From Litorilinea aerophila (GTDB taxonomy: Bacteria; Chloroflexota; Anaerolineae; Caldilineales; Caldilineaceae), in contig CAMDEX010000003.1 in the NCBI GenBank assembly GCA_945897075.1, positions 1,940 to 65,939 on the forward strand: a stretch of DNA of 64,000 bases. Direction: 5' to 3'. The stretch's first letter is position 1, and every line of letters starts with the position of its first letter. Under the pieces are notes generated by a model, which made no database searches, was not told where the DNA came from, and was given only the letters and a program-made list of their open reading frames with translations. Below, one piece after another: positions 3,353 to 62,037 of the stretch. The translations under genes were made by a program, and so were the position numbers.

Positions 3353-3568
3353 ATGCCCGACGAAACCGCTCCACCCCAACCCCAACCCCGCTCCCAACTC
3401 TTCACCGTGCGTCTCTGGCGCGACACGGAACAGAGCGACGCGCCCGCCCCATATATGCAGGTGCGCCACGTGCTGACCGGAGAGACGCGCTACTTCAGCA
3501 CCTGGCCGCCGGTTATTGCGTATCTGTTGAGCAAGCTGGATTCCCTGCCTTTGCCCGAAGAAACGTGA
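3353..3568 (+). CDS. small conserved-looking hypothetical protein (71 aa)
   Basis: ATG at 3353 has GGGGAG 7 nt upstream (the ORF track starts at the GTG at 3320). Sequence ..LFTVRLWRD...YMQVRHVLTGETRYFSTWPPVIAYLLSKL. A decayed duplicate lies just upstream. No named domain recognised. Confidence 0.55.
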   Translation: MPDETAPPQPQPRSQLFTVRLWRDTEQSDAPAPYMQVRHVLTGETRYFSTWPPVIAYLLSKLDSLPLPEET

Positions 3569-3657
3569 AGTGAGCAGTGAGCAGTGAACAGTGAACAGTA
3601 CTCGTGAAGACTACTTACTGATTACTGATTACTGTTCACTGATAACTGATAACTGAC
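3565..3657. repeat. palindromic short-tandem-repeat (STR) hairpin, unit TGARCAG / CTGWTHA (7 nt)
   Basis: cgTGAAGTGAGCAGTGAGCAGTGAACAGTGAACAGTA..loop..TTACTGATTACTGATTACTGTTCACTGATAACTGATAACTGAC. It begins at the stop codon of the 71-aa gene. The arms are only partly complementary. Confidence 0.8.
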
Positions 3658-3694
3658 GTGTGGCGCATTCTATTTTCCCACAGGAGGAAACCGT

Positions 3695-6600
3695 ATGAAA
3701 CGCATTGCCCGTTGGTACAAAATCGTGTTTGTGCTGGCCGCCTTGCTCGTCATCGGGCGGGGTATCCAGCTTGCCCAGGCCGCGCCGCCAGCCGATGACG
3801 ACATAGACGCCCTGATCGCCAATGCCGAGAGCGCCGCGCCCACAGCCATCGCCCAGGACGCCACGATTCTGGGCTGGGACGACGACGGGATGGCAACGGT
3901 CGTCCTGCGCGAGGGCACGAACGGGTGGACTTGTCTCACCGATTGGCCCGTCTCGCCGGGCAACGATCCCCAGTGCAATGATACCGTCTGGCAGGAGTTT
4001 AGCAAAGCCTTCGGCGCTGGCGAAGAACCGGAGATTGACGGCACGGGCATCGCCTATATGCTGGCTGGCGGCAGTGATCCCAGCAATACCGACCCGATGG
4101 CGATGCAGCCAGCCGCGGGCGAGGATTGGGTGACATCACCGCCCCACATTATGTTTCTCATGCCCGACGGCTTTGACGCTGACTTCTTCTCCACCACTCC
4201 CAGCGACAGCGTGCCTTACATTATGTGGGACGGCACGCCCTACGAACATCTGATGGTTCCGGTAGTGGCGATTACAGCCGAACAGATGGGCGACGTCAGC
4301 GATGAGATGATGAGCGCGATGAGTGCGGCCCCCGCTGAGATTGCCATGAATGCCATAATTATGGGCAACCCGGAAAAAGCTGGCGACCCGAAGGTTGTGC
4401 TGCAAGAAGGGACGAATGGCTGGGTCTGCTATCCCGACCGGGCGGTTTCGCCGGGTGACGATCCCATGTGCAATGACGCCACGATGGATGCTGGTTTCGC
4501 CAACGGTGCGACCCGGGATGTGTCTGGCCCCGGCCTCGGCTATATGCTGGCTGGCGGCAGCGACGAGAGCAACACCGACCCCATGGCCAGCGGCCCTGCC
4601 GAGGGCGAAGAGTGGGTCACCACCCCGTCCCACCTGATGTTGATGGTTCCCGGCGGCTTTGATGCCGACTACTTCAGCACCGACCACAACTCCGGCTTCC
4701 CGTACATTATGTTCGCCGGCACCGACTTCGAACATCTGATGATCCCCGTGGCCGATATGTCAGGGATGGACATGGGGCACATGCAGGACGTTGCAGCGAT
4801 GGATGACGATGCGCTGCGCACAGCGATCATGGATGCAGAATTTAAGACGTGGGATGATCTCATGGCGCATGACGTGGACGCAACCAGGGCAGAGATCGCC
4901 GAAGATTTCATCATGATCAACCCCGACGGGGACAGGCTCGGTCGCGAGGATTTACTGGATATAGTCGGTGATATGGCATTGACTTTTGAGAAGCCGGTTC
5001 GTGACAATATCGTGGTTTGGCGTCTCGGACCCGACACGGCGATAATCGTCTATGTGATCGAATACAACGGTAGCTACGACGGCGATGCATTCTCCGGTAA
5101 TGAAGAAACTGCTTCCATCTGGCAGGTGCGCGATGGCCGCTGGCAGAACATTTTCCTGCAAAGCACACGGCGTACCGCCGCCATAGAGTTGGCAAAGCGC
5201 ATTGCCAACGCCGAGAGCGCGGCCCCGTCAGCCATCGCCCAGGACGCCACGATTATCGATTGGGCCGAGGACGGCAGCCCCACTGTCGTCCTGCGCGAGG
5301 GCACAAACGGCTGGAGCTGCGTCACCGACTGGCCGGTCTCGCCTGGCAACGATCCCCAGTGCAACGATCCTACCTGGCAGAAGTTTAGCAAAGCCTTTGG
5401 TGGGGGCGAGGAGCCAGAGATTGACGGTCCGGGCATCGCCTATATGTTGGCTGGCGGCAGCGACCCATCCAACACCGATCCAATGGCGATGCAACCGGCA
5501 GAGGGTGAGGAGTGGATCACCACCCCGCCCCACATTATGCTTCTCATGCCCGGTGGCTTTGACGCAGACCTCTTCCCCACCGAACCCAAGCAGGACGAGC
5601 CGTATATTATGTGGGACGGCACGCCCTACGAGCATCTGATGGTGCCTGTGGTGGCGATCACAGCCGAGGAGATGGGCGACGTCGACGAGGCCCTGCATAA
5701 TACGATGAGCGCTGGTCCAACCGGCATTGCTATGAATGCCACGATTATGGGCGACCCGGAAAAGGCGGGCGACCCGATGGTTGTCCTGCAAGAGGGGACG
5801 AATGGGTGGGTCTGCTATCCGGACGGACTTGGCTCTCCAGGCAACGACCCGGCCTGTTTTGACGCCATCACCGATGCAGGCTTTGGGGGGGGTGCAACCA
5901 AAGAAGTCCCCGGACCGGGCATCTCTTATATGCTGGCGGGCGGCAGCGATCCCAGCAATACCGACCCCAGCCTGACCGCTCCTGCCGAAGGGGATGACTG
6001 GATCACCACACCAGCCCACGTGATGCTGATGGTTCCCGGCGGCTTTGATTCCACCTACTTCACTACCGACCACACCTCCGGCTTCCCCTACATTATGGTA
6101 GAAGAGTCGAATGTGGAGCATCTGATGATCCCCGTGGCCGATATGCCGGTGATGGATATGGAAGATACGCGGATAATGCTGCCCAACGGCTTCCAACCGG
6201 AAGGAATCGCTGTCGGTCAAGATGGGATGGCGTACGTAAGTTCGGTTGGCTCGGGGGCCATCTACCAAGTCGATTTGGAGACCGGTAACGGCAGCTTCCT
6301 TGTGGAACCCCAAGAGACACAGAAGGCGCTGGGGATGGTCTACGATCAGCGCACCGATCTGCTCTATGTGGCTGGTCATAGCTCTGGCAATGGGATGGTC
6401 TTCAATGGGTTGACCGGTGAACTGGTGGCGAATGTTCAGTTCACCACCGATCCCGACGGGCTGGTAAACGATGTCGCGCTGGCCGATGAGGTGGTCTACT
6501 TCACCGACTCCAATCTGCCCCTCGTCTATCGTCTGCCTCTGACAGCAGAACACCAGCCCGACCTGTCGGCCACGCAAACCATCTCGCTGACCGGCGACTT

Positions 6601-10515: not shown

Positions 10516-11445
10516 TCACCCCACCGACGCCTGATACTCCTCCACTGCGCGTCGGGTTGTCATCCAATTGCGCCCGCGCTTGACCGCCTCCAACCGCCCC
10601 GTGCGCGCCAGCAGGCTCAGATATTCTTGGCTGTAGGGCGTTCCGTCTGCCGCCTCTCGCATGGAAATCCACTGCTCCTTTGCTGCTGGCGGCGCAGTGC
10701 GGGGTGTGCAAGCGTCCAGATAGAGAGTCAGGCTGCGTTCCACCGCCCGCCCTACGAAATTGACCAGCGCTGCGTCCTGATGGCTGTCGGCCTGGGCCAA
10801 CACCCGATAGTATTGTCCGCGGTTGTTCTGTTGGATGATTGTGGGCGGATAGCCCTCCTGCATCAGCAACAGATTCATCGCCAGCCGGGCCGTGCGTCCA
10901 TTGCCATCAATGAAAGGATGGATCGCCACCAATCGGTGATGGGCCAGAGCAGCCCGCGCCACCGGATGCAGGAGGCGGCTTTCGCCACCCAGCCAATCCC
11001 CCCATTCGAGCATCAACCGCTCGATCTCCCAGGCGTCGGGTGGTGTGAGAGCAGAACCAGCAATCCGCACAGGCAGGCGGCGGTATTGCCCGGCGCTGAC
11101 GTCGTCAATATGGGCCAACACCAAATGGTGAATCTGACGCACCACAACCGGCGTCAATGGCTGGTGATCTTCCACAAGTCCCTGGACAAAATGGATGGCG
11201 CTGCGATGGTTTGTCACCTCAAAATGCTCGCGCAGACTTTTGCCGCCGATGGTAAGACCCGTTTCCAGGATGAGCCGGGTCTCCTGCAGCGTCAGGGTGT
11301 TCCCTTCAATCGCGTTGGAATGGTAGGTCCACTCGATGAGTATTTCGTCTTGCAGCCGTTGCAGCGCTGCCGCTGGCAAAGGCCGCAGATCATCCAAAGT
11401 CTGCTTCTTCTTGTCAATTCGCTCTTGCAGTCGTTTTTGCAGCAT
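10516..11445 (-). CDS. Fic family protein (AMPylase-type) with C-terminal DNA-binding-like tail
   Basis: Fic motif HPFIDGNGRTARL. N-terminal inhibitory-type motif SNAIEGN. The last ~55 aa (WISMREAA...YLSLLARTGRLEAVKRGRNWMTTRRAVEEY) resemble an excisionase/MerR-type HTH. Confidence 0.9.
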   Translation of the reverse strand: MLQKRLQERIDKKKQTLDDLRPLPAAALQRLQDEILIEWTYHSNAIEGNTLTLQETRLILETGLTIGGKSLREHFEVTNHRSAIHFVQGLVEDHQPLTPVVVRQIHHLVLAHIDDVSAGQYRRLPVRIAGSALTPPDAWEIERLMLEWGDWLGGESRLLHPVARAALAHHRLVAIHPFIDGNGRTARLAMNLLLMQEGYPPTIIQQNNRGQYYRVLAQADSHQDAALVNFVGRAVERSLTLYLDACTPRTAPPAAKEQWISMREAADGTPYSQEYLSLLARTGRLEAVKRGRNWMTTRRAVEEYQASVG

Positions 11446-11464
11446 AGCTCACTTACACACAACC

Positions 11465-11507
11465 ATCGGTATCGGATAAGGCAGATTTTACTCTATCCGA
11501 TACCGAT
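11465..11507. promoter_or_regulatory. 14-bp perfect inverted repeat (candidate operator) 20-60 nt upstream of the Fic gene start
   Basis: ATCGGTATCGGATA-n15-TATCCGATACCGAT in the AT-richer spacer upstream of 11445. Confidence 0.5.
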
Positions 11508-11617
11508 AGGCAAGAATGGCTCGCCGCCACGCTTGACATTCACACGAATACTCTGTGTTATACCGGTCCGTTATGATAATCGATAGGTATAATTGATATG
11601 AATGCTTCATCAATTCC

Positions 11618-11905
11618 ATGGAAAAAGTGTTGGTGCTGGGGGAGTGCAAATGGGGTACGCAGCCCATTGGGCGCAGTGTGTTGACTGATCTGATCGACAA
11701 GACAAGCGAAATTGTGCCCGCAACTGGCAACTGGCAGGTCTATTACCTGGGCTTTGCGCGCGACGGCTGGACCGAACAGAGCCTGGCACTGGCGCAAGAA
11801 CTCACAACGACCGCACCGACGGGTAAAAACTGGCGGGTGCTTGGGATGAAATTGTTGGATTTGTCCCAGGTCGATCGGGATTTGGGCGCGTGGACTGTCT
11901 TGTAA
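11618..11905 (+). pseudogene. C-terminal fragment of a DUF234-type ATPase
   Basis: The 95-aa ORF (VLVLGECKWGTQPIGRSVLTDLIDKT...YLGFARDGWTEQ) matches only the C-terminal DUF234 part of ~450-aa ATP-binding proteins. The ATPase part is absent. Confidence 0.6.
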
Positions 11906-11906
11906 A
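11774..11906. repeat. 133-bp direct repeat, copy 1 (3' end of the DUF234 fragment)
   Basis: gaacagagcctggcactggcgcaagaactcacaacgaccgcaccgacgggtaaaaactggcgggtgcttgggatgaaattgttggatttgtcccag..gtcttgtaaa. Roughly 95 percent identical by eye to 12695-12827. Confidence 0.9.
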
Positions 11907-11945
11907 CAATTGAACGGTTTTACGTGGCAACAGTTTAGCCAGGGG

Positions 11946-12578
11946 CTATCGCCACGTTGCAGGACGCTGCAAAATGAATCCATCCGGTTTGACGACTTGA
12001 TCGGGAAACACGCTCTTGGACAGCACATCGCGACCGATGAAAGTGTACGCATGAGCAGCCTGTTTGAGCGCGTTTGAGGAACGGTCCGGTGGAAAAGTGA
12101 CTACAATCCGCTTTTGCTCAAAGAGTCGTTGCACTGTTTGGATCGGCCCTACCAGATCGCTGTCGGCGGAGACGATCAATGCAACGTCGAATTTGTCTTG
12201 AAAAGCATCGGACATCAGCTCTACAGCGATGTTTACGTCGGTCATCTTCTCGTGATAGGTTTGGTAAGTATGTCCGCAGTGCCTACAGATCACTGTGCCC
12301 GAAAGGTAGTGGCCGTAGTAAACTTCAACGCTGTCTAATGTCCTTAGAGCTTCTAGATAGATCGCTTGCCTTCTGTGCTTGTCAGCAGGATAGTTGACAA
12401 CGCTGGTGAAGTACTTGGTTGTGATCAACATTTGGTCGGGCTTTAACATGCCCCGCGCCATTTCTTGGATGTTGAGCCAGTAGAACCATCTCCAGCCTTT
12501 GGAGCGCAAGCCGTAATACAAGTTGAACCCGTCAATGTAGGCGACGACTCGTTTCACGAAGGTTTCCTTGTACTCCAC
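11946..12578 (-). CDS. NYN (PIN-like/LabA-like) domain protein with internal CxxC zinc-ribbon
   Basis: 210-aa ORF: VAYIDGFNLYYG...TKYF...CRHCGH...EKMTDVNIAVELMSDA...DVALIVSADSDLVGPI. Lower G+C than the flanks. Confidence 0.85.
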   Translation of the reverse strand: MEYKETFVKRVVAYIDGFNLYYGLRSKGWRWFYWLNIQEMARGMLKPDQMLITTKYFTSVVNYPADKHRRQAIYLEALRTLDSVEVYYGHYLSGTVICRHCGHTYQTYHEKMTDVNIAVELMSDAFQDKFDVALIVSADSDLVGPIQTVQRLFEQKRIVVTFPPDRSSNALKQAAHAYTFIGRDVLSKSVFPDQVVKPDGFILQRPATWR

Positions 12579-12694
12579 AAAAGAGACGACCCACCCTTGC
12601 GGGTGGGCGTCGGGCCAGAGATGCTATCTCTGGCGGGGTATTGATGCCATTGTATCACAATATCGGCAGCAGTCAACTTCTGATTGCTGTCACT

Positions 12695-12827
12695 GAACAG
12701 AGCCTGGCATTGGCGCAAGAACTCACAACGACCGCACCGACAGGTAAAAACTGGCGGGTGCTTGGGATGAAATTGTTGGATTTGTCCCAGATCGATCAGG
12801 ATTTGGGCGCGTGGGTTGTCTTGTAAA
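12695..12827. repeat. 133-bp direct repeat, copy 2 (other side of the NYN gene)
   Basis: Same sequence as 11774-11906 with a handful of substitutions. Together the two copies bracket the NYN gene. Confidence 0.9.
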
Positions 12828-12850
12828 ACGCATGCAATGGAAATGCTCCT

Positions 12851-13345
12851 ATGCTCCGTCTCGATTTTCTCCTGCGCCGGATCTTCACTTCTACGGTCGT
12901 CGTGGCTGGTGTCATCACACTCACCTTTTTCGTCACGCGCATGCTGGGCTTGGGCCTGGCCTGGTGGCCGCTCTACGCCGTGCTTGTGCGGGGAGATGTG
13001 GTGCGTCTGCGTGGCCTGCCCTTTGTGGAAGCGGCCCGCTCTATCGGCGCGTCGCCCTGACGCGTCGCCCGTCGTCATCTGCTGCCCAATGCGTTGGGGC
13101 CGCTGCTGGTGCAGGCGACTGTGGATGTGGGCGCGGTGATTCTGGTGGCCTCTGGGCTGAGCTTCATCGGGCTGGGTCCCCAGCCGCCCACTGCGGATTG
13201 GGGGGCGATGATTAACAGCGGGCGACAGTTTGTGTTGAGCGGAAGTTGGTGGGTGGCCGGTTTCCCCAGCCTGGCAATTCTGCTCACCGCGCTGGCCTTC
13301 GCCACGTTGGGGGATAGTCTGCGTGCGACAGCCGATCCTCGTTGA
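12851..13345 (+). pseudogene. chimeric ABC peptide-transporter permease remnant (OppB/DppB N-terminus fused to OppC/DppC C-terminus, with an in-frame TGA)
   Basis: MLRLDFLLRRIFTSTVVVAGVITLTFFVTRMLG is an OppB-type N-terminus. LRGLPFVEAARSIGASP*RVARRHLLPNALGPLLVQATVDVGAVILVASGLSFIGLGPQPPTADWGAMI...GDSLRATADPR is an OppC-type C-terminus. The two ORF-track pieces (12851-13060 and 13094-13345) share a frame and are split by the TGA at 13058-13060. Confidence 0.75.
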
Positions 13346-13398
13346 CGAATCCGACCCACTGAACATCGCGCATGTCTGATTCTGTCTTGACTTTTTTG

Positions 13399-13407
13399 TG
13401 ATATACT
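13399..13407 (+). promoter_or_regulatory. candidate extended -10 promoter element for the PIN TA pair
   Basis: TGATATACT, with TTGACT a little upstream (spacing is too short for a canonical -35). Confidence 0.3.
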
Positions 13408-13447
13408 CAAATCAATGGCAAAAACGCAATGGATGAAGGAGGAGAGA

Positions 13448-13726
13448 ATGAACTATAGCGAACGCGCCCTGCTCGTTACAGCGGTTGGCGATGACCGCAC
13501 GATTGTTTTGCCCGCCAGTATTCCCAGAGGAGCTACAATCGGGATTGTGGTACTGTCGAATCCTCCCGCACCGGAATTGAGCCGCAAAGCCCGTTTCAAA
13601 GCTGCGCTGGCCGAAATCGAAGCAGCCATTGTACACAGCGAACGCCAGCCGATCCCAGTGCTTCCTGACGCCGAGTTCAACGCACTGATCGAACACGCTC
13701 GTAAAGATTCAACTCCGCTTGAGTGA
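13448..13726 (+). CDS. putative antitoxin partner of the downstream PIN toxin
   Basis: ATG at 13448 preceded by GAAGGAGGAGAGA (the ORF track starts at 13415). Small acidic protein that ends 12 nt before the PIN gene. No named domain recognised. Confidence 0.55.
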   Translation: MNYSERALLVTAVGDDRTIVLPASIPRGATIGIVVLSNPPAPELSRKARFKAALAEIEAAIVHSERQPIPVLPDAEFNALIEHARKDSTPLE

Positions 13727-13737
13727 CAATACCCCAA

Positions 13738-14157: not shown

Positions 14158-14173
14158 GGATAAGGAGTCAATA

Positions 14174-14811: not shown

Positions 14812-14837
14812 TACATCTGATTTCGTTCCAGCTTCAT
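14705..14837 (-). pseudogene. N-terminal remnant of a DNA methyltransferase-like gene
   Basis: MKLERNQMYQGDALESLSSVLKNSVDLNICDGPFGV resembles the N-terminus of N4/N6 DNA methylases (..GD.LE.L..L...SVDLI.TDPPY), with a degenerate DPPY motif. It stops where it meets mazF. Confidence 0.35.
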
Positions 14838-49573: not shown

Positions 49574-52500
49574 ATGCCAGTAGCCATGCGCAAAATCCGT
49601 ATGCCCAGATTGTTTGGAGTGCTTCTGTTGTGCAGCCTCGTATTGGCTGGATTGGTGCAGGTGGGCCGCATCTATGCGTCGCCCTCTGCTCTGCCCCCGC
49701 TCAAAAATAGCCTGCCTGCCCCGCTTGCCCAAGAACCGCAGCCGGCATCGATCCCATCCTCTCAAACGACACCCATCATCAATGGCTCGTGTGACGCAGA
49801 CGGGGAATACAAGGATGCACTCGTCCTCAACTTCCAGGACGGCGGGCAGTTCCAGGGCCAGGTGCGGGTGCAACATAACGGCCAGATGCTCTACGTCTGT
49901 ATGAATGGAGCGCCTGGCAGCTTGGAGGAACGTTTCGTCAGCGTCTACCTGGACAGGGACAACGCGGCCGAAGCGGTGGCCGAAGAAGACGATTACTCCC
50001 TGCGCGTGGAGGTGATCACGAACCTTCTGAGCAATTTGCAGGGCAACGGCACGCCCGATGGCTACCAACCCAATACAGTAAACGGCTGGACTGCCGCTGC
50101 CACGACAGGACGCATTGGGGATCAGGCCGAATACGCCATCCCGCTGGAGATCGTTTCGTTGGAACTGAACGGTGGTCTCTGCAATGCCCACTTCGGGCTG
50201 GCCGTCTATCACCACTGGCTCACCGATCAGGGCGAAGATTACGGGATGCCCTCCAGCCAATACTTCGACCAGCCCCAGACCTGGCAGCCGGCGGTCTTGG
50301 ACACGGGCAAACCTTGCGACCCACCAACCGCAACACCCACTTCAACGCCGACCCCGACGTCCACCGGCGAACCGGCCACAGACACACCCACGGCTACACC
50401 CACAGACGTCGACGCCACGCCCACACCGCCGGGCACGCCAGACCTGGGCGACGCGCCCGATTCCACCAACGGGTCTGAGACGGCGATGTCGGCCTATCCC
50501 GGCGTGTCGGCCGCTTTCCCGTCGGTCTTCCAGGCCGGTTCGCCCCCCTATGGCCCCTACCACAGAAACTATCCGCTCCTTTTCCATCTGGGCAAAGAGA
50601 TCAGCCGGGAATTCGAGGCGGACAGCGGCCCGGACGACGACGGCGTCAACAACATCAACCCCAAAACGGATGTTTCCGACCGCGACGGTTTCGACGACGG
50701 CGTGCCCCAGGGCTTTCCCAGCTTCACACCTTGCACCTATCAAGAGTTCAACTACGAAGTGCGGGCCTATGCCGGCGCGCCGGAGAAGGTCTATGTGAAT
50801 GTCTGGGTGGACTGGGATCAGAATGGCAAATGGGGCGAATTATTCCAATGTTTCATTGGAGATGTGGGCATCGCCGTAAGCGAATGGGCGGTGGAGAACC
50901 AGGAGGTTGCGCTCTCCGGTTCAGGCAGCTTCAGCTATACGACACCATCTATCATTTCTTTTCCGGGCGATCCAAATAAGGGACGCTGGCTGCGTATCAG
51001 CGTCAGCAGCGAACCTGCCACCAACTCCGACGGCAGCGGCCCGGAAACGGGCTATCAATACGGCGAGACGGAAGATTATCTCCTGCCCGGCAAACAGCCG
51101 ACGCCGACGCCAACCACGACAGCGACGGGGACGGACACGCCCACCATCACACCGACACCCACAAACACGACGACGCCGACCGAAACACCGACTGCTACAA
51201 ATACGCCGACGGCCAGCAATACCCCGACGCGCACGCCGACACCGACGCATACGCATACGCCGACGCGCACGCCGACACCCACCCGTACACCGACACGCAC
51301 ACCGACGCATACACCCACAAACACGCCGACCCGTACACCCACCGCCACGCCCATCATTCTGGATCTGCGCGTGGTCAACATCGAGATCAACCAGGGCATC
51401 CAAAACCTGGCCAGCAATGTGCCGCTGACCGCAGGCAAAGACACCTTTGTGCGCGTCTATCCCATCAGCACAGGCCAGAACGCGTCGCCGGTCTTTGCCC
51501 GTCTGCGCGGTTTCCGCAATGGCGCAGAACTGGCTGGCTCGCCCCTCTCCCCCGTCAACGGTTCGATTGGGGTCTTCACAGGCGGGGCCGACCGCAGCAA
51601 CCTGGGCGCTACCTACAACTTCTGGCTACCCGCCAGTTGGCGCACAGGGACAGTCACATTGCAGGCCGAAATTGATCCCTTCAATGCCCGCCCGGAGAAC
51701 AACGAGGGCAACAACACCTTCTCTATCGTGCGTGGCTTTGGCAACCAGGAACCCATCTGTGTGGTGGTGCGGCCTGTGCGCACAAATGGCTCCCACTACA
51801 CGACCGCCAGCCCCGGTTTCTGGAGTGTGATTGGCCGCTTCCAGACTCTCTGGCCGCTGGCCGACTTCCGCTACTACCAGAATGCCAGCCGGATGGAACG
51901 GCCCTGCGGCTTCCTCTGGCTCTCCAAGTGCCCCTGGGAATTGCCCGGCCAGTCGGACGAGCTGATGTTCCATCTGATTACGTGGAACACCTTCACCTCT
52001 AACCCGGCCGGCTGCAACAGTTCGGGGGCCGCCACCCACTATATGGGAATGGTCAGCCCCGACACCAACACGGGGAATAATCTGGGCTATGCCAACTATG
52101 CCATCGGTTCTTCTTACGTAAAGATGGAGAGCGGCGGCGGCGGCTTCAACAGCGATCGCGGCGGCGGCACAATGGCCCAGGAGTTGGCCCACAACTACAA
52201 CGGCGTTTTCGGCAGCCGCTGGAAGCACGTCAACTGTGGCAACCCCGGCGATCTGAACAACAGCTACCCCTACCCCGGCTGTCAGATCGCCCAGATAGGC
52301 ACATCCAACCACTATGGCTACGACACGCGCAGCAACCAGGTGATTGCTCCCAACGGCGCGGCGGACTTTATGTCCTACGGCGGCACAAAGTGGGTCTCGG
52401 ATTATACGTGGACAGGTCTGCAGAACCGGGCGCTGGTCTCGGTGGCAGAGGCCGACGCCAGCGATGCCCTGACCCGCATCCTCGCCAGCGATGAGATGCT

Positions 52501-53437
52501 CATCATCGGCGGTGTGATTACGCCCACCACCCAGTCCGCCCTGCTCTTCCCGGCCTATCGGGTAGCACCGACGATGCTGGACCGCACAAAGCTGAAGCAG
52601 GCGGTGGAGGCACAGTTCGTGCCGCGCACCCACCCTCATCCGTTGGCCGATCCCGCTTATAGCCTGGACTTCCTCAATGCCCAGGGCGGGCTGATCGCCA
52701 GCGAACCTGTGACACCCACCGAAGCCTTCGAGCACAGCCCCAGCCAGGTACTCTTTGTGACAGTGCCCTTCCACGCGGGCACAGCCACCATCCGTTTGAC
52801 CCAGGACGGGCAAGCTATCGCGGCCATGCCGGTGAGCGGCAACGCACCGACTGTGCAGATCACATCGCCCAACGGCGGCGAGACTGTCAACGGCCCGTTG
52901 ACCATCGAGTGGACGGCCAGCGACGCCGACCAGGACACCCTCTACTATCTGGTGCAATACAGCGTGGACGGCGGCAGCAACTGGGAGACGTTGGTCAATA
53001 TGCACACAACGACCAGTTTTGTGCTCAGCGACACGACTACCCTGCAGGGCAGCGGCCAGGCCCGCATCCGGGTCACAGCCAGCGACGGGGTGAACACCGG
53101 CTCGGACACCTCCGACGCCAACTTCACCGTCAGCGACAAGCAACCGCTGCCCCACATAGACAGCCCGGCGGACGGCACGCAACTGCTCGTCACCGATGTG
53201 GTTGTCACTGGCGGGGCCTACGACCCGGAAGATGGCAATCTGGGCGACGCAGGGCTGAGTTGGACGGTGGACGGCAACGCGGCTGGCACAGGCGCACAGG
53301 TAACACTCAGCGCTCTGGCGACAGGCCAACACACAGTCGTTCTCACCGCCACGGACAGCCAGAACAACCAGGCAACGACCAGTCTGACCTTCTGGGTGGG
53401 CAGCGCGCTCTGGCTGCCCGCGATTGAACGGCAGTAA
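49574..53437 (+). CDS. very large secreted protein: N-terminal carbohydrate-binding-like domain, GEVED-like domain, Thr/Pro linkers, degenerate metalloprotease-like region, C-terminal Ig-like repeats
   Basis: 1287 aa. Signal/anchor [24 protein letters not shown]...DDGV...[10 protein letters not shown]...YGETEDY (GEVED-like). ~85-aa TP-rich linker. [10 protein letters not shown] at nt 52178-52192. Two Ig-like repeats at the C-terminus. Confidence 0.9.
51094..51350 (+). other. Thr/Pro-rich linker-coding low-complexity region inside the 1287-aa gene
   Basis: Encodes [85 protein letters not shown]. Confidence 0.9.
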
Positions 53438-53446
53438 GTAGTTCCA

Positions 53447-53517
53447 GTAGGTTGGGTTCTTCCGGCACAAACGGCAAGTCATTCCTATCTGACTTCTGCC
53501 GGAAGAACCCAACCTAC
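53447..53517. repeat. second copy of the same hairpin family (GTAGGTTGGGTTCTTCCGGC, 20-bp perfect stem, 31-nt loop)
   Basis: Arms at 53447-53466 and 53498-53517. Starts 10 nt after the stop of the 1287-aa gene. Confidence 0.9.
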
Positions 53518-53530
53518 GGCTGCCGCAGAT

Positions 53531-53571
53531 AAAAAGTCCCCGGCACTGCGGAAAGTGCCGGGGACTTTTTT
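53531..53571. terminator. bidirectional hairpin terminator between convergent genes
   Basis: AAAAAGTCCCCGGCACT-gcggaa-AGTGCCGGGGACTTTTTT, with an A-tract upstream and a T-tract downstream. Confidence 0.85.
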
Positions 53572-53577
53572 GTCACC

Positions 53578-55620
53578 TTAGACGATTGCCCGCTCCACGC
53601 GGAAGGGTGTCCCCTCCACCGGCTCTTCGTCGAATTCCCGTGCCGCCAAATGGCCCGCATAGACGGCCTGGGCGATGATATTGGGCGCTTCGGCGTCGCC
53701 GATGACCCGCAGCGAGGCCAGCTTTCCCCCGGCCAGCGCGGGCAGGAGATCGCTGTAAAGCGCGTCGTTGGGCTGTCGCTCTGTGACCAGCGCCACCCCG
53801 TCGCAGGCGATTTCGTCCACCCCGCCGCTGATCAGATCGGTCACCAGCACCCTGCCCGGCTGAATGGTGGCCAGGCTGTGTTGGGTACGCCAAGTGACGC
53901 CCAGACGGGCCAACCGCTGCTGGATGCGCTTCTGTTCCAGGGAGTGTTGTGTCCACTGAGAGAGCAGATCGGCGGGGGTGATCAGCGTCACCTGGCAGCC
54001 GTGGGCCACGAGCAGTTCGGCTAGCACGCCGCCCATATAATAGCTGTCGTCGTCGTAGATGACCACCTGACCGTTGGGCAACCGTCCGGCCATCAGATCG
54101 TCCGGTGTATAGACGTTCTCCCCGTCGCTCCCCGCCACGGGCCGCCAGAGCGTGCGGCCAATCCCATCGCGCCGCCAGTTCGCCCCCGTCGCCAGGATCA
54201 CGTGAGGGATTCCCGCATCCAGCACATCCGCCGCGGCCATCGGGCTGCCGGGGTAGAGGGAGACATTTGGCAACTTCTGGAGTTGGGTCAGCCGCCAGTC
54301 CGCCACCCGCCGCCATTCGCGCAGGCCGGGCAGGGCAGATTCCAGAATCACCCGTCCGCCCAACTCGCGGCGGGCTTCGGTCAGCACGACTGTATAGCCG
54401 CGCTGTCCCAGGGCGCGGGCAGATTCCAGCCCCGCGGGTCCGCCGCCCACCACAAGCACTGCTTTGTTGCTGCGTTTGGGCTGGATGATTTCCGGGTGCC
54501 AGCCCCGCCGCCACTCCTCGCCCATTGTCGGGTTCTGGGTGCAGCGGATGGGCACAATCTGCATATCGCCGGTGATGCAGATGTTGCAGCCGATACACTC
54601 CCGGATATCCTCGCTGCGCCCTTCCTGGATTTTGCGGGGCAGAAAGGGGTCGGCGATGGAGGGACGGGCCGCACCGATCAGGTCCAGCACGCCGCGGCGG
54701 ATGGCCGAAACCATCGAGTCGGGTGAGGTGTACCGCCCCACACCCACCACCGGTTTGCTGGTCAGGGATTTGACAAAGGCGATGTACTTTTCCTGGTAGC
54801 CCTCCTTTTCAAAACGGGAGGTGGCCGAATCGTTGGCCCAACCGCTGATATTTACATCCCAGAGGTCGGGCAGCTCGGCCAGCAGCGCCACAATCTCGTA
54901 GCCCTCGCCCTGGCTGGTCAGCCCGTCGTCGCCCAGCAACTCGTCCACGGCCAAGCGCACCGCCACCCCGCAGCGATCCCCCACCGTCTCTTTGCTCTCT
55001 TCGATCAACTCGCGCAGAAGACGCGTACGGTTTGCCAGGCTGCCGCCGTATTCATCTGTGCGGTCGTTATAACGGCGCAGAAGCATCTGCATGGGCAGCG
55101 TCATATTGTGGCCGGCGTAGCAGTATACAATGTCGAAGCCAGCGCGCAGGGCGCGCAGGGCCGCGTCCCGATGCCAACGGCGCACATTGCGCAAATCCTC
55201 TTTGTCCATGCGCCGGCTCTGCACAGGCGCGGTGTGGGTCACGCTCATCGAGCGCGGGCCGAGAGGCGGCACGCGCGAGAAGAGATTGGAGGCGTCAATG
55301 CCGTTATGCACCAGTTCGATGGCAGCCAGGCTGCCGTGGGCGTGGATGGCTTCGTTCATCCGCTGCCAGAGGGGGATATCCTCGTCGCCCCACAGACGGC
55401 CTTCGATATAGGGCGCAATGTCGCTGGTGTGGTGAATCTCCACCTCTTCGGTACAGACGACACCCCAACCCCCTTCGGCCTTCACCCCGCGCATAGCGGC
55501 CATGGATTTGGGCATCCGATAGCCCATCCCGTTGCAGTGGGGTACTTGATAGAAGCGGTTGGGCGCTGTCACGGGGCCGATCTGAATCGGCTGGAAGAGA
55601 ATGTCAAAGGGGTTGGACAT
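53578..55620 (-). CDS. NADH:flavin oxidoreductase with Fe-S and FAD/NAD(P) domains (trimethylamine dehydrogenase / 2,4-dienoyl-CoA reductase family)
   Basis: 680 aa. OYE-like N-terminus with RFYQVPHCNG (TMADH-type Cys). 4Fe-4S CIGCNIC. Dinucleotide fold VLVVGGGPAGLE. Confidence 0.9.
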   Translation of the reverse strand: MSNPFDILFQPIQIGPVTAPNRFYQVPHCNGMGYRMPKSMAAMRGVKAEGGWGVVCTEEVEIHHTSDIAPYIEGRLWGDEDIPLWQRMNEAIHAHGSLAAIELVHNGIDASNLFSRVPPLGPRSMSVTHTAPVQSRRMDKEDLRNVRRWHRDAALRALRAGFDIVYCYAGHNMTLPMQMLLRRYNDRTDEYGGSLANRTRLLRELIEESKETVGDRCGVAVRLAVDELLGDDGLTSQGEGYEIVALLAELPDLWDVNISGWANDSATSRFEKEGYQEKYIAFVKSLTSKPVVGVGRYTSPDSMVSAIRRGVLDLIGAARPSIADPFLPRKIQEGRSEDIRECIGCNICITGDMQIVPIRCTQNPTMGEEWRRGWHPEIIQPKRSNKAVLVVGGGPAGLESARALGQRGYTVVLTEARRELGGRVILESALPGLREWRRVADWRLTQLQKLPNVSLYPGSPMAAADVLDAGIPHVILATGANWRRDGIGRTLWRPVAGSDGENVYTPDDLMAGRLPNGQVVIYDDDSYYMGGVLAELLVAHGCQVTLITPADLLSQWTQHSLEQKRIQQRLARLGVTWRTQHSLATIQPGRVLVTDLISGGVDEIACDGVALVTERQPNDALYSDLLPALAGGKLASLRVIGDAEAPNIIAQAVYAGHLAAREFDEEPVEGTPFRVERAIV

Positions 55621-55690
55621 AAGGGTTTCCTTGTGCGTGGCGCGTGGCGCGTAAAACAGTGTAGCCGACAGCCAAAGGTGCGGGCCGAAA

Positions 55691-55759
55691 GGTGAAGCGT
55701 GAAACGTGAAACGTGAAACGTGAGGGTATGTGACTTGAATTCACGTTTTACGTTTCACG
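55691..55759. repeat. palindromic STR hairpin (GTGAAAC family) between two minus-strand oxidoreductase genes
   Basis: GGTGAAGCGTGAAACGTGAAACGTGAAACGTGAGGgtatgtgacttgaatTCACGTTTTACGTTTCAC. Confidence 0.9.
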
Positions 55760-55782
55760 GGTCTGAAGGTTGCGCAGCGCTC

Positions 55783-57048
55783 TCAGGCAAAGATCGTAGC
55801 GTCCAGATAGTCATTGCGGAACTTGCCCTGGGGATCGAAGGCTTGGGCCAGCGCCCGGAACTCATGCAGTTTGGGGTAGCGGGCTTGAATCTGCTCTCCT
55901 GGCATCGTAAAGAGTTTGCCCCAGTGCGGGCGGGGCTGGAAGGGGGCAAGCTGCTTTTCGATCAGGGGCAGCAGACCGCGCACAGAGGGCCAATCGTTGT
56001 TCAAAGAAAAGTGGATGCCGATCGTCGCCTGCTCATACGCGGTGCTCATCCACAGGCTGTCAGCAGCCACGCTGCGTATCTCGGAAAGGATCAGAACCGG
56101 GCCCAATTCGCGGCGCAGGCGGGCCACAGCAGCCAGGGCTGCCACCGCATACTTGCGATCCACGAAGTACTCAGCCTGCAACTCGTCGCCGCTGGCCGGG
56201 GCGTGATCGATCAAAAAGTGGGGCAGCCGGGTCTGCCAGGGGCCTGGAATGCCCATCTGTGGGGTGCAGGGGTCCGCGGAAAGCCGCTTCAACGGGTGCA
56301 AATGGCGGGTGGCGAGGGCACCGCCGTAGAAGGTGGGCGCAGGGGTCAGCCCACTTCCATCCGCCAGATGCCGCTTGAGCCAGACCTGATTGATTGATTC
56401 CTCCTGCCAGTCGGTGAAGAAGCTGACACTGTAGGCGCTGGAAAAGATGGCGTCAAAATGGGCTTCGGCCTGGGCCAGTGGTAGCCTTTCGTAGACCTCC
56501 TGCTGCATAACAAAGGCTGGTTGCGTCTCCAGTGCCATGCGCGTCACCACCCCCAGCGCGCCCAGATTCACCACCGCGCCCAGAAAGGTCTCGCCATCTT
56601 TCTGCCGGGAAAGGGTGACAATCTCCCCATCTGCCCGCACCAGTTCCAGGGCCGTGACGGCTGTCGCCAGGTTGCCGTTGCCGTCACCGGAGCCATGGGT
56701 GGCCGTAGCAACAGCCCCGGCCACGCTAATGTGGGGCAGGGAGGCCATATTGTGCAGGGCGCGGCCCGCCTTGTCCAATTGGGTGCAGAGTTGGCCGTAG
56801 GTAATACCGCCGCTGACTGTTACGCTCTGCCCTGTCTGGTCAATCGAAAGGCTCTGGTCCATTTTGTCCAGGCAGATCTGTTCTTCCGTCGTGTCAGTGA
56901 TGGCGTTGAAGGAGTGGCGCGCGCCGAAGACTTTCACTTTGCGGCTGCGGGCAACGATCTCTTGCACTTGCTCGATAGATTCGGGGTGGTGGACTCTGGC
57001 CGAGGCGTAGCGAATGTTTCCGGCCCAGTTGCGTCGAAGCTCATTCAT
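55783..57048 (-). CDS. FAD-linked oxidase of the D-arabinono-1,4-lactone / alditol oxidase family
   Basis: Start refined to the ATG at 57048. NWAGNIRY...VFGARHSFN, C-terminal ALO block PHWGK. Confidence 0.85.
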   Translation of the reverse strand: MNELRRNWAGNIRYASARVHHPESIEQVQEIVARSRKVKVFGARHSFNAITDTTEEQICLDKMDQSLSIDQTGQSVTVSGGITYGQLCTQLDKAGRALHNMASLPHISVAGAVATATHGSGDGNGNLATAVTALELVRADGEIVTLSRQKDGETFLGAVVNLGALGVVTRMALETQPAFVMQQEVYERLPLAQAEAHFDAIFSSAYSVSFFTDWQEESINQVWLKRHLADGSGLTPAPTFYGGALATRHLHPLKRLSADPCTPQMGIPGPWQTRLPHFLIDHAPASGDELQAEYFVDRKYAVAALAAVARLRRELGPVLILSEIRSVAADSLWMSTAYEQATIGIHFSLNNDWPSVRGLLPLIEKQLAPFQPRPHWGKLFTMPGEQIQARYPKLHEFRALAQAFDPQGKFRNDYLDATIFA

Positions 57049-57125
57049 CTGTATACTCCTTGTGGGTACAATGGCGTGTAAGAAAGCACAAGAGAAATCA
57101 TACACCATTCAGGCAAAAAAGAGCT

Positions 57126-58439
57126 ATGAACGCTACTCACCTACCTGCGACGGGCGCAACCTACCGCGTGCCCGGTCTCGTTCTCACCGACCACTGGTTT
57201 GATCTGCCTCTTGATCACGCACAGCCCGCTGGCCCGACCATTTCAGTCTATGGACGGGAGGTGGTCGCCCCCCAAAAGCAAAACGACGCTCTGCCCTGGC
57301 TGCTCTTTCTGCAGGGTGGCCCTGGCTTTGGCGCGCCCCGACCGCTCAGCGCCAGTGGCTGGCTGAAACGGGCCATGCAGGAGTTCCGCATCTTCCTCTT
57401 GGACCAGCGGGGCACAGGCCGCAGCACGCCAGTCAACCGGCAGACGCTGGCTGCTCTTGGCTCAGCCCGACAGCAGGCCGACTATTTGAAGCACTTTCGC
57501 GCCGACTCGATTGTGCAGGATGCGGAATGGATCCGGCGCAGGCTGGTCGGCGCAAACGAACCGTGGAGCGTACTCGGGCAGAGCTATGGCGGCTTCTGTA
57601 CGGTTCACTATCTTTCTGCCGCGCCGGAAGGAGTGCGCGAAGTCTTCATCACCGGCGGTCTGCCCCCACTCATGGCGACCGCGGATGAAGTCTATAGAGC
57701 TACCTATCGCCGGGTATTGGAGCAGAACGGGTTGTATTACCGCCGCTATCCGAGAGACGTGGAGGTGGTGCGCCGGGTGGTGGATGCCCTGACCGCACGC
57801 GAGGTTCTGTTGCCATCGGGTGATCTGCTGACACCCCGCCGACTGCAACAATTGGGGCTGGCGTTTGGGGCCAGCGATGGCCGCGAGCAGGTCCACTACC
57901 TCTTCGAGCAGGCCTTTGTGCAAGGCAGACACGGCCCAGAGTTGGGCTATCCTTTCTTGCACGCGGTTGAAGCGATGCAATCGTTCAACACCAACCCCAT
58001 CTTTGCCATCCTGCACGAATCAATCTACTGCCAGCAGAAGGCTTCCAACTGGGCCGCCCACCGCATCCGCAACGAATATCCCGCCTTTGACAGCGCCCAA
58101 GCTGGGCCTGTCTATTTTACCGGCGAAATGATCTACCCGTGGATGTTCGATGAGTACGGCGAGTTGCAGCCACTGCAAGAAGCCGCCGATCTTCTCGCCT
58201 CTGATGCCAGTTGGCCGCGGCTCTACGACGGGGAGCGGCTGGCCCAGAATCAGGTGCCGGGGGCAGCCGCGGTCTATTACGACGATATGTATGTGGAGCG
58301 CAGCTTCTCTGAGGAGACGGCGCGGGCCATTCCCAACCTGCGTATGTGGATCACAAACGAATATGAGCACAATGCCCTGCGCGCCGACGGCGAGGTCGTC
58401 CTGGAGCGGCTGATTCAGATGGTGCGCGGCGAACGGTAG
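57126..58439 (+). CDS. alpha/beta hydrolase, prolyl aminopeptidase (S33) family
   Basis: Start refined to the ATG at 57126. LFLQGGPGFG, LLDQRGTGRS, nucleophile elbow GQSYGG. Confidence 0.85.
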   Translation: MNATHLPATGATYRVPGLVLTDHWFDLPLDHAQPAGPTISVYGREVVAPQKQNDALPWLLFLQGGPGFGAPRPLSASGWLKRAMQEFRIFLLDQRGTGRSTPVNRQTLAALGSARQQADYLKHFRADSIVQDAEWIRRRLVGANEPWSVLGQSYGGFCTVHYLSAAPEGVREVFITGGLPPLMATADEVYRATYRRVLEQNGLYYRRYPRDVEVVRRVVDALTAREVLLPSGDLLTPRRLQQLGLAFGASDGREQVHYLFEQAFVQGRHGPELGYPFLHAVEAMQSFNTNPIFAILHESIYCQQKASNWAAHRIRNEYPAFDSAQAGPVYFTGEMIYPWMFDEYGELQPLQEAADLLASDASWPRLYDGERLAQNQVPGAAAVYYDDMYVERSFSEETARAIPNLRMWITNEYEHNALRADGEVVLERLIQMVRGER

Positions 58440-58472: not shown

Positions 58473-59054
58473 ATGCCCACGCCAACCCGCCAGGAAGCCT
58501 ACGCTCTGCTCTGTGAATGGGTAGAATCGGAAAGCCTGCGCCGCCACAACCTGGCCGTGGAAGCGGCCCTGCGCGCTTATGCCCGTCATTACGGCGAGGA
58601 CGAGGAACTCTGGGGGCTGACCGGGCTACTCCACGACCTGGACTACGAACGCTGGCCCGATATGGACGACACGCAAAACGGCCATCCGCGCACGGAGCTG
58701 CGTCTCTTTCGCGAACGGGGCTACCCCGCCGCACTGATCCACGCCGTGGAAGCCCACGCCACTTTTCTGGGCGTGCCGCGTATCTCCCAATTGGACAAGG
58801 CGCTGCTGGCCTGTGACGAGCTGACCGGACTGATTCTGGCCTGCGCCTATGTGCGCCCGGACAAAAATCTGCGCGATGTGGGGGTCAGTTCGGTCAAAAA
58901 GAAATGGAAAAACCGCAAATTTACCGAAGCCATTGACCGCGACGAGAACGAACACTTCATTGCCGAGCTGGGCGTGGACTTCGACGAACACGTGGGGCGG
59001 GTTCTGGCGGCTATGCAAGAGGTGGCAGAGGCGTTGGGGGTGGCGGGGGAGTAG
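58473..59054 (+). CDS. HD-domain phosphohydrolase
   Basis: 193 aa. LRRHNLAVE...LTGLLHDLDYE HD signature. Confidence 0.8.
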   Translation: MPTPTRQEAYALLCEWVESESLRRHNLAVEAALRAYARHYGEDEELWGLTGLLHDLDYERWPDMDDTQNGHPRTELRLFRERGYPAALIHAVEAHATFLGVPRISQLDKALLACDELTGLILACAYVRPDKNLRDVGVSSVKKKWKNRKFTEAIDRDENEHFIAELGVDFDEHVGRVLAAMQEVAEALGVAGE

Positions 59055-59113
59055 GGATTGGGGATTGGGGACTGGGGATTGGGTGTCAAGTCCCGATCCC
59101 CAATCCCCAATCA
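59054..59113. repeat. palindromic STR hairpin (GGGGAYT family) between convergent HD and GT2 genes
   Basis: TAGGGATTGGGGATTGGGGACTGGGGATTGGGtgtcaagtCCCGATCCCCAATCCCCAATCA. It touches both stop codons. Confidence 0.9.
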
Positions 59114-60134: not shown

Positions 60135-60171
60135 AAAGTCCCCGGCACTTTCTGAAGTGCCGGGGACTTTT
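60135..60171. terminator. second copy of the same terminator hairpin (GTCCCCGGCACT stem)
   Basis: AAAGTCCCCGGCACT-ttctga-AGTGCCGGGGACTTTT, between the 60212-61045 gene and the GT2 gene. Confidence 0.7.
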
Positions 60172-61045: not shown

Positions 61046-61112
61046 CGGCTCCTCGTCGTAGGGCGGATTGGCAATCCGCCCAAAGCGGACGGAATACCAT
61101 TCCGTCCTACGG

Positions 61113-61856
61113 CTAACGCAATTTCGGCACCGGACCAGCCACCGTATCCAGGCTGCCGCCTAGGTCGATCAGTTCCGCAGCAATCCGGCGCAGACAGCCC
61201 GCCAGGTCGTCGGCAATCTGTCCGGGGGCCAGGCGCAGCAGCCGCCAGCGGTCGGGGAGGAGCGCGTCGCGCACCTTGTCGGTCTCGTCGCCGCAGCGGA
61301 TGCCCAGATAGCCGTTGCGGGCGCGCAGGGCAATGTCTGCCGGCCAGTCGCCCACCAGCCGGTTGGGCAGCGGACGCAGCCGGTTGTCGCGCAGCGCCTG
61401 CCAGAGTGTGTCGAAAGGGTCGTCGTCCCGGCGCAGATCGGTGATATCTTCGGCGCGCAACAACCGTTCCAGCGTTGTATGGATAAAAGTGACGCGGCGG
61501 AAAGTGGCCGCGGGTATAGGATGATCTAAACGCTGTAACGGGCCGATGTCAATGCGAAAATAGTAATCCTGGGCGCGGGGGTGATCCGTCTCCTGGGGCA
61601 ACAGTTCGGCCCGGGTGAGCAGACGGTAGCGCTGCACCGGGGCAAACCAGGTGACCGTGTGGCTCTCCTCCTTGGGCTGGAACGCGCCCGTCTGGTAGAA
61701 GGCCAGATAGTCAGCGCCGATGCGCCGGGGTGCCCGCCGTTGGGGGATGCGATACCAGCCGTCGGACGCGGCCCGGCGCAAATCTTCCGGCTGGTTGACC
61801 ACCGCCACCAGGACGGTACGCCGCTGCAAATGGGGGTCGGAATAGGCGAAGTCCAT
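61113..61856 (-). CDS. hypothetical protein (247 aa)
   Basis: Start refined to the ATG at 61856 (MDFAYSDPHL..); the ORF-track start reads through a repeat. No domain recognised. Sits immediately downstream of uvsE on the same strand. Confidence 0.6.
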   Translation of the reverse strand: MDFAYSDPHLQRRTVLVAVVNQPEDLRRAASDGWYRIPQRRAPRRIGADYLAFYQTGAFQPKEESHTVTWFAPVQRYRLLTRAELLPQETDHPRAQDYYFRIDIGPLQRLDHPIPAATFRRVTFIHTTLERLLRAEDITDLRRDDDPFDTLWQALRDNRLRPLPNRLVGDWPADIALRARNGYLGIRCGDETDKVRDALLPDRWRLLRLAPGQIADDLAGCLRRIAAELIDLGGSLDTVAGPVPKLR

Positions 61857-61870
61857 AGGCAACCTCTTTT

Positions 61871-62037
61871 GTGGTGCGTGCTGCGTAAAGAAGTAGTGAC
61901 AATTGACGCATATAGCGCGCATGTGGTGCGTGGTGCGTAGTGCGTCAAGCAGTAGTGACGATTGACGCATATATCACGCATTAGGTGTAGTAGCGAAGAA
62001 CGCACCACGCATCACGCACCACGCACCACGCACTACG
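61871..62037. repeat. composite STR element, unit GGTGCGT / ACGCACC, with a nested ~55-bp direct duplication
   Basis: Two direct copies of GTGGTGCGT..GTGCGT..AAG.AGTAGTGAC.ATTGACGCATATA..CGCAT are followed by the inverted arm ACGCACCACGCATCACGCACCACGCACCACGCACTACGC. Confidence 0.85.

Follow-up and report, generated by a model that had tools for sequence, protein, structure and literature searches.

We analysed a 64,000-nucleotide (nt) stretch of DNA from Litorilinea aerophila (Chloroflexota; contig CAMDEX010000003.1), hereafter the window, and found twelve loci at which a hairpin has microsatellites for arms. At each of the 12, a purine-rich or G-rich array of 7- or 8-nt tandem units is followed by a unique spacer of 5-54 nt and then by the reverse-complement array, as seen with Tandem Repeats Finder and an inverted-repeat finder. 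We give about even odds to the view that these are palindromic microsatellites of the short tandemly repeated repetitive (STRR) type, made by slippage and by template switching between arms, confined by selection to the boundaries of cistrons and present in transcripts as stem-loops resembling repetitive extragenic palindromes (REPs). Our confidence is higher for the origin of the hairpins than for their function.

An earlier note on this DNA had described paired arrays with locus-specific units. The architecture was found at every locus that it listed, and its units were confirmed by reading the sequence: GGGGAYT, GTGAAAC with or without GTGAAGRC, CAGTGAR/TNACTGA, ATTGGGT, ATTGGTTG and GGTGCGT. 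GGGGACT/AGTCCCC units occur at 15385, 17255, 20556, 25959 and 59046, GGGGACT being what we take to be the reverse complement of a rotated STRR1 unit, CCCCAGT; the remaining loci have non-canonical STRR units. The note had assigned GGGGAYT to five intergenic loci, and the actual count is four intergenic loci and one intragenic. The period is 7 at most of the 12 loci, 8 at 40662 and mixed 7/8 at 23485 and 32859 (Tandem Repeats Finder); over all sequence examined it is 7 in 26 of 32 periodic-arm hairpins. The two arms often differ greatly in length, as with the 17 versus 3.4 units at 32859-33030. The stems, of 15-45 bp, are near-perfect and lie within apparent operons, between cistrons. The loci are listed below (SD, Shine-Dalgarno sequence; dG, folding energy; z, score against dinucleotide-shuffled sequence).

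3565-3657, plus strand: arms 3569-3599 and 3615-3656, (CAGTGAR) x4.4 versus (TNACTGA) x6; flanked by two plus-strand genes, with the stop TGA (3566-3568) within the first unit; downstream, SD AGGAGG at about 3682 and ATG at 3695; folding on the plus strand gives dG -36.8, z -5.4.
15385-15486, minus strand: arms 15390-15419 and 15441-15484, GGGGAYT/ARTCCCC; intragenic.
17255-17337, minus strand: arms 17256-17285 and 17297-17328, GGGGAYT; in a divergent intergenic region, its end 2 nt from the SD of a minus-strand oxidoreductase gene (ATG 17238); a promoter-like match (17379-17351) lies immediately upstream.
20556-20646, plus strand: arms 20558-20588 and 20602-20645, GGGGAYC; the stop TGA of a glnA-type gene (20557-20559) is within the first unit, and 8 nt separate the 3' arm from SD GAAGGAG, with a GTG start at 20668.
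23485-23611, plus strand: arms 23486-23571 and 23582-23609; 5' arm (GTGAAAC/GTGAAGGC) x12, then a palindromic core that is unique (GAGATCA..TGATCTC) and about 4 units forming a degenerate 3' arm; begins 5 nt past the stop codon of an ABC-F gene.
25959-26077, plus strand: arms 25959-26007 and 26024-26069, GGGGAYT, with 45-nt arms; the dnaJ stop TGA (25963-25965) is within the 5' arm, and the true ATG of the next gene (26080) lies 3 nt past the 3' arm; dG -89 kcal/mol, z -10.4.
32859-33030, plus strand: arms 32859-32991 and 33007-33030, alternating GTGAAAC/GTGAAGAC, about 17 units versus 3.4 GTTTCAC; begins 32 nt past the stop codon of a SpoU methylase gene.
39369-39446, plus strand: arms 39369-39390 and 39413-39445, ATTGGGT/ACCCAAT; begins 8 nt past a TAA stop, with its 3' end directly at SD AAGGAG (ATG 39459).
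40662-40731, plus strand: arms 40663-40683 and 40687-40730, octamer ATTGGTTG/CAACCAAT; begins 3 nt past a TAA stop, with the next ATG at 40743; z -8.3.
55687-55759, minus strand: arms 55687-55723 and 55740-55759, GTGAAAC/GTTTCAC; flanked by two minus-strand genes, 23 nt past the upstream gene's stop codon (55783-55785).
59046-59113, between convergent genes, no strand assigned: arms 59046-59083 and 59092-59112, GGGGAYT; the plus-strand gene's TAG (59052-59054) and the minus-strand gene's stop (59111-59113) are both within the arm ends.
61871-62038, minus strand: arms 61923-61945 and 62000-62038, a composite element made of a GGTGCGT array plus a module of 36-40 nt, in two direct copies, then (ACGCACC) x5.6; its limits are 2 nt past the upstream stop (62041-62043) and, on the other side, the SD of the following minus-strand gene (ATG 61859).

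The earlier note had asked for a comparison with shuffled controls: in RNA folding, all 12 loci beat dinucleotide shuffles on both strands, with z from -4.0 to -10.4. A detector that called hairpins first and arm periodicity second found 26 strong hairpins in the window, and the arms of 11 were periodic, while 100 first-order Markov simulations of the window gave a mean of 0.17 hairpins and 0.00 periodic-arm hairpins. An independent European Nucleotide Archive assembly, L001, equals the window at 100% identity over 24607-28965, and contigs from several lake-water runs span the hairpins at 15385, 39369 and 40662 without differences. Since these match the hairpins base for base, an assembly artefact is excluded. 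The source runs carrying the window sequence are lake and freshwater metagenomes. The window has a G+C content of 52-63%, and the protein of its glnA-type gene (19198-20559) is 92% identical to those of Caldilineaceae metagenome-assembled genomes (MAGs), including a Litorilinea aerophila MAG, the closest of them, with DNA identity of about 84%. The nearest genomes are thus those of Caldilineaceae and not of the heterocystous or filamentous cyanobacteria that define the hosts of the STRR class.

We then placed the hairpins on a gene map made with our own codon-usage caller of open reading frames (ORFs) and checked with Pfam. Intergenic sequence makes up 12% of the window and holds 11 of the 12 hairpins (binomial p = 8e-10), so the number of gene boundaries marked is 11, one short of the minimum of 12 given earlier. 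Eight of these 11 begin 0-10 nt from a stop codon, as the earlier note had stated for most of them; those at 32859 and 55687 start 23-32 nt past it. The stop codon itself is in the outermost unit at 3565, 20556 and 25959, and at both ends of the convergent-gene locus at 59046-59113, which indeed touches both stops. The accompanying statement, that most end right before an SD, holds for five loci (17255, 20556, 25959, 39369 and 61871), where no more than about 10 nt separate the hairpin's end from the following SD or start codon, and fails for the remainder. By orientation, nine of the 11 lie past a gene end with a co-directional next gene, one is convergent and one is divergent. The divergent one, at 17255-17337, is 5'-UTR-like (UTR, untranslated region) because it adjoins the SD of the minus-strand gene. 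Of the periodic-arm hairpins, 1 of 28 falls between divergent genes, whereas ordinary hairpins do so in 37 of 136 cases (p = 0.006), in a sample biased by locus retrieval. We saw no sequestration of an SD or start codon by the hairpins. Such elements also mislead gene callers, with ORFs called through the hairpins at 25969 and 40680: a metagenome annotation lets the phosphatase gene begin at 25969 and run through the hairpin, while comparison with the relative L004 and the Pfam domain boundary put the true start at ATG 26080. Short-read assemblies of such genomes break at the hairpins.

The two arms are not interchangeable. The G-rich (purine-rich) arm is the 5' arm at 12 of 12 window loci and, with an unbiased detector, in 29 of 32 periodic-arm hairpins over all sequence (p = 3e-6), compared with 108 versus 68 among ordinary hairpins; these p-values are optimistic because orthologous loci are not independent. 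The structure being palindromic, the polarity is the same on either strand. It may have several reasons. The C-rich arm would be paired as soon as it is made, leaving no Rho loading site exposed; SD-like G-rich units could be held away from the next start codon; and the purine-rich units GTGAAAC, CAGTGAA and ATTGGTTG may serve by bringing stops in three frames beside the gene end.

Variation among close genomes bears on how the arms are maintained. At the 39369 site, the four closest genomes have ATTGGGT/ACCCAAT or ATTGGGG/CCCCAAT, and 3 of 11 consensus pairs have changed on both sides. In the core at 23485, the window has GAGAT..ATCTC where L004 has GAGAG..CTCTC, a compensatory change, and L004 has the same unit in fewer copies. 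At this site the same-species genome L002 differs by one unit type, a GTGAAAC/GTGAAGGC swap, and an X2 contig has a 7-nt deletion; at 32859-33030, 1-nt insertions in run contigs turn 7-mers into 8-mers. No copy-number polymorphism was seen at 39369 and 40662 across four lake metagenome runs, whose contigs are identical. The earlier proposal of slippage combined with arm-to-arm correction is thus supported by unit-size steps within the species and by the same unit change in both arms; slippage also fits the difference in copy number between the arms of a hairpin. In an all-versus-all comparison of spacers, the only matches were orthologous or arm-derived; since the spacers are locus-specific, whole hairpins are not being copied around.

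We further compared the same junctions in relatives. The density is 1.9 hairpins per 10 kb in the window and similar in L003, versus 0.07 per 10 kb in other Chloroflexota loci surrounding glnA (1.3 Mb in all) and 0.07-0.14 in relatives overall. The trait is lineage-specific and most relatives lack it. Past the stop of the glnA-type gene, some hairpin is present in six of six genomes, and the six are different: GGGGAYC units in the window, CAGTGAA units in L003, a non-repeat palindrome of the window's 24521-24652 family in L004 and L049, and yet other hairpins in L005 and L006. At the 17255 site, L003 also has a GGGGAYT hairpin and L049 has one of GGAGATT type. At the 39369 junction, metagenome relatives (64-94% protein identity) have hairpins of at least 10 other units (GGGGAYY, AGTAAGT, ACGTAAW, GAGATTAA, GGGAGTY, GGAGTAA, GGATTAA, GAATCAGC, CAGGTTG and GTAATTG), and some have plain hairpins or a mere 0-7 nt. 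The site past dnaJ is 12 nt long in L004 versus 119 nt in the window. Synteny at 40662 is retained in two metagenome relatives only. L085 has 3'-arm units alone at this site. We saw no target-site duplication at one presence/absence site (window versus L004).

One copy lies inside a gene. The hairpin at 15385-15486 is in frame in a minus-strand gene (14956-17238) for a 760-aa molybdopterin oxidoreductase, where it forms a 34-aa loop between the Molybdopterin and Molydop_binding domains (Pfam). The insert is 102 nt long in the window and 87, 102, 99, 174 and 135 nt in five relatives, which use other units within conserved flanking peptide sequence. All six inserts are multiples of 3 and stop-free, for which the chance expectation is 0.004. 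Because the inserts are in frame and stop-free and their flanks conserved, we conclude that the intragenic hairpin is translated as a hypervariable loop. Judging from the units found at this site, only those stop-free in both orientations are present there.

We propose the following account. Slippage in steps of the unit size, strong in the Litorilinea-like lineage, would expand the arms of intergenic hairpins, and intramolecular template switching (quasipalindrome correction) would copy changes from arm to arm. Because the arms copy each other, the stem survives while unit sequence, copy number and unit type turn over. Purifying selection would then spare hairpins only where an extruding stem-loop is harmless, namely the gap between a stop and a ribosome-binding site, the space between convergent stops, or a tolerant protein loop when the insert is stop-free and in frame. 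The hairpins would be transcribed within operon mRNAs and, if they act at all, may do so like REPs or phage T7 intercistronic sites, either as barriers to 3' exonucleases or as RNase III substrates that set cistron ends. We draw this likeness because the transcribed stems are near-perfect and lack a U-tract.

Several observations weigh against this account. The strict polarity does not follow from slippage plus template switching. Some relatives have only 0-12 nt at the same junctions, so the hairpins are dispensable there, and their absence argues that any role is dispensable as well. The stem mismatches show no excess of G-U pairs on the sense strand (8 versus 10 on the antisense), and sense and antisense folding energies show no consistent difference either. 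This leaves selection at the RNA level undemonstrated; homogenisation of the DNA could by itself maintain the pairing of the arms. The metatranscriptome contigs, from four runs, are sparse over the window, undirected, broken at the repeats and of depth 0-12. A 21-nt arm segment, TATTGGGTATTGGATATTTCG, is identical at 39369-39389 of the window and at the non-orthologous site L049:823-843, with DNA identity between window and L049 of only about 83%, a hint that arm sequences may to some extent disperse or undergo ectopic conversion.

Another possibility, to which we give a real but lesser chance, is that the hairpins are a neutral or selfish by-product of slippage and template switching, placed wherever selection tolerates them. 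The hairpin-free junctions in relatives (the dnaJ site of L004 and many loci at the 39369 site) would fit this, as would the units left unpaired by unequal arms, the absent G-U bias and the patchy, one-lineage distribution (1.9 versus 0.07-0.14 per 10 kb). However, some hairpin follows the glnA-type stop in all six genomes compared, and strict polarity together with depletion between divergent genes, the latter from a biased sample, suggests a filter linked to transcription or translation. We think it improbable that selection goes as far as a lineage-wide, self-renewing operon punctuation. Under such a system, heptamer-specific slippage and fold-back would build long stems de novo at cistron boundaries, and those with the G-rich, stop-bearing arm 5' would be selected, their C-rich arm being sequestered at transcription so as to offer no Rho site or SD mimic. 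The stems would set cistron stoichiometry as RNase III or exonuclease boundaries, with a possible link to hairpin-borne genes of PF05635 (23S rRNA intervening-sequence protein).

The earlier note had also suggested that the hairpins terminate or attenuate transcription. We consider this unlikely, even though the stems have high stability, most directly follow stop codons and convergent genes flank one of them. Our terminator scan covered 14500-34000 and 38000-57900, with nine of the 12 loci inside, and called none of the nine; by reading the sequence, we found no T-run or U-tract in the 3' flanks of any of the 12. The same scan calls a textbook terminator at 19093-19125, past the first glnA gene (A-tract, 14-bp stem, T-tract). 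Since the genome has a textbook terminator and these hairpins lack a U-tract, they are not canonical intrinsic terminators. Moreover, most sit within apparent operons, 0-25 nt from the following SD, one is in a 5' UTR and one is within coding sequence. DNA-level elements, whether site arrays bound by a nucleoid protein or regulator, cruciforms or G-quadruplexes (G4) of the G-rich arm, have slightly less in their favour still. The mismatch spectrum is symmetric, as such elements would allow, GGGGAYT x4 arms match G4-forming repeats shown by circular dichroism spectroscopy (PMC4692102), and paired heptanucleotide sites of Geobacter metallireducens are annotated as global-regulator sites (PMC2700814). 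But units that vary by locus and at orthologous sites are unlike the target of one sequence-specific protein, promoter-bearing divergent regions are depleted, and GTGAAAC, CAGTGAR, ATTGGTTG and ATTGGGT are unable to form G4: by sequence, the five GGGGAYT loci have at least four GGG runs, and the GTGAAAC, CAGTGAR, ATTGGGT, ATTGGTTG and GGTGCGT loci do not. We consider spread by a transposase, as of REP-like elements or MITEs (miniature inverted-repeat transposable elements), to be highly improbable. It could explain the 21-nt arm segment shared by non-orthologous sites of the window and L049; true REP-like palindrome families coexist at the same type of site (the 24521-24652 family at the glnA-type site of L004 and L049), and one relative, L138, has a PF05635 ORF between its arms. 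Against it, each locus has its own loop and spacer, the arms everywhere differ in how many copies they hold and in how unit variants are ordered, target-site duplication is unseen at the sole presence/absence site, and no transposase or REP-associated tyrosine transposase (RAYT) is found by Pfam among the 49 predicted window genes, the map showing ordinary housekeeping genes.

The window and its relatives hold further repeats. Upstream of dnaJ, at 24521-24652, a non-microsatellite palindrome (GGACGCAGATTTTCATGATTTGRATTGATC...) is partly duplicated as a 125-nt tandem repeat (24553-24801); it looks mobile in the manner of REPs or MITEs because the same family is found at the post-glnA site of L004 and L049. 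Two more families of small REP-like hairpins, distinct from the microsatellite ones and each with one sequence at separate intergenic sites, occur at 53531-53570 and 60135-60170 (AAAGTCCCCGGCACTT...) and at 49252-49325 and 53447-53517 (GTAGGTTGGGTTCTYCCGGC...). Ahead of the 19093-19125 terminator lies a plain hairpin with 25-nt arms (18993-19064), and in two runs the metatranscriptome contigs stop at 19018-19045. The relative L138, at its counterpart of the 39369 site (positions 520-1130), has GCGAGTK/AAGAGTK arrays facing AACTCGC/AACTCTT (duplex about -53 kcal/mol); they enclose a 147-aa ORF of PF05635 (E = 3e-11), the sole such case in 2.2 Mb. Past the 32859 hairpin, a 430-nt gene-free stretch (33030-33461) holds an inverted repeat with 33-nt arms (33176-33321) and a lone TTCACGT x2.4 array (33360-33376); its DNA and RNA contig depth, 10-25x that of neighbouring bins, suggests a multicopy element. 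A cluster of small hairpins at 46287-46411, with 47-nt arms 81% complementary and repeated ACGCTCTGCGT motifs, lies between the hemC stop and the probable true hemB start, and the ORF called from 46276 crosses it. The 308-nt gap upstream of a beta-lactamase-family gene contains a perfect palindrome with 30-nt arms (43755-43821), then a self-complementary 44-nt tandem repeat x2.8 (43852-43986). Among the genes, toxin-antitoxin-like and related ones (Fic, NYN, PIN, MazF/PemK) cluster at 10516-14811, and a second Fic-domain gene lies further on (36828-38327). A 1287-aa ORF (49574-53437) has a Thr/Pro-rich low-complexity tandem region (51137-51351) with periods of 6, 12, 18, 24 and 36 nt.

To our knowledge, heptamer microsatellites have been catalogued for 35 years, in cyanobacteria, Xanthomonas, Beggiatoa and Geobacter, with no accepted function or origin. 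We found no literature report of heptamer repeats in Chloroflexota, which thus becomes a new phylum for known, unnamed and functionally unexplained STRR-type heptamer hairpins. The lineage is useful in that nearly all arrays are paired, many unit types coexist in one genome and relatives can be compared site by site; Litorilinea aerophila is cultivable, and the action of such repeats on mRNA could be tested there.

STRRs reportedly also lie inside the structured gene rnpB (Vioque 1997, cited in PMC4046671). A search of the whole window against Rfam gave no matches at the curated gathering score, and a scan of the window for tRNA and tmRNA also gave no match. The earlier note had taken the palindromic organisation to be undescribed. 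While no named family or Rfam model covers it, the organisation itself has precedents in the cyanobacterial hupS-hupL STRR hairpins (PMC2670836) and in the array pairs of Xanthomonas (PMC4692102). The hupS-hupL hairpins of filamentous cyanobacteria, for which a role in transcript stability or translational coupling was proposed (PMC2670836), resemble ours as hairpin-forming tandem heptamers in intergenic or intercistronic positions. The window differs in its Chloroflexota host, with a genome of 60% G+C, and in having at least six unit types under one architecture in 64 kb; whereas few GGGGAYT arrays of Nostoc are paired (PMC4692102), nearly every array in the window is. In each Xanthomonas genome, GGGAATC arrays form 70-75 pairs in which the G-rich one leads (Rehm et al. 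2015, PMC4692102), a convergent orientation that equals the polarity seen here. About 90% of these pairs are intergenic, at a mean of 28 nt past the upstream ORF, and they are rare between divergent genes (PMC4692102). The window hairpins share the convergent same-unit arrays forming a stem-loop, the intergenic position near the upstream ORF end and the rarity between divergent genes. However, Xanthomonas has a single unit family, discussed with emphasis on G-quadruplexes (PMC4692102), whereas most window units are not G4-capable. There, repeat length varies between species and repeat type is preserved (PMC4692102), while in the window lineage orthologous sites exchange one unit type for another. 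The flush placement from stop to SD, the polarity rule and the in-frame coding copy are undescribed for Xanthomonas (PMC4692102).

REPs and bacterial interspersed mosaic elements of enterobacteria and pseudomonads are likewise extragenic palindromes in 3' UTRs or between cistrons without U-tracts and, as mRNA-stabilising stem-loops, they offer a working analogy for what the window hairpins might do. REPs, of 20-40 nt, have a conserved family sequence, a GTAG or CGTC head and a link to RAYT transposases (PMC3733652). The window hairpins differ in having no conserved sequence, microsatellite arms, variable units and spacers, and no RAYT gene among the 49 predicted window genes; from MITEs they differ by their unique spacers and the absence of duplication at the window/L004 site. 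The TAACTGA heptamer arrays of Beggiatoaceae, cyanobacteria and Bacteroidetes, again in filamentous bacteria, lie next to start and stop codons, mostly just upstream of starts, where a protein-binding role was proposed, and vary between strains by indels in 7-nt steps (MacGregor 2015, PMC4679880). The 3' arm at 3565 has TAACTGA and TTACTGA units, but the TAACTGA arrays are direct and unpaired, with 169 direct sets versus 1 inverted (PMC4679880). Geobacter metallireducens has multicopy tandem heptanucleotides, mostly paired, both intergenic and intragenic and annotated as putative regulator-binding sites (PMC2700814), a likeness taken from their description. To these systems the window adds arrays that are almost all paired, a diverse set of units, a rule of polarity, hairpins that turn over at orthologous sites and one copy that codes in frame.

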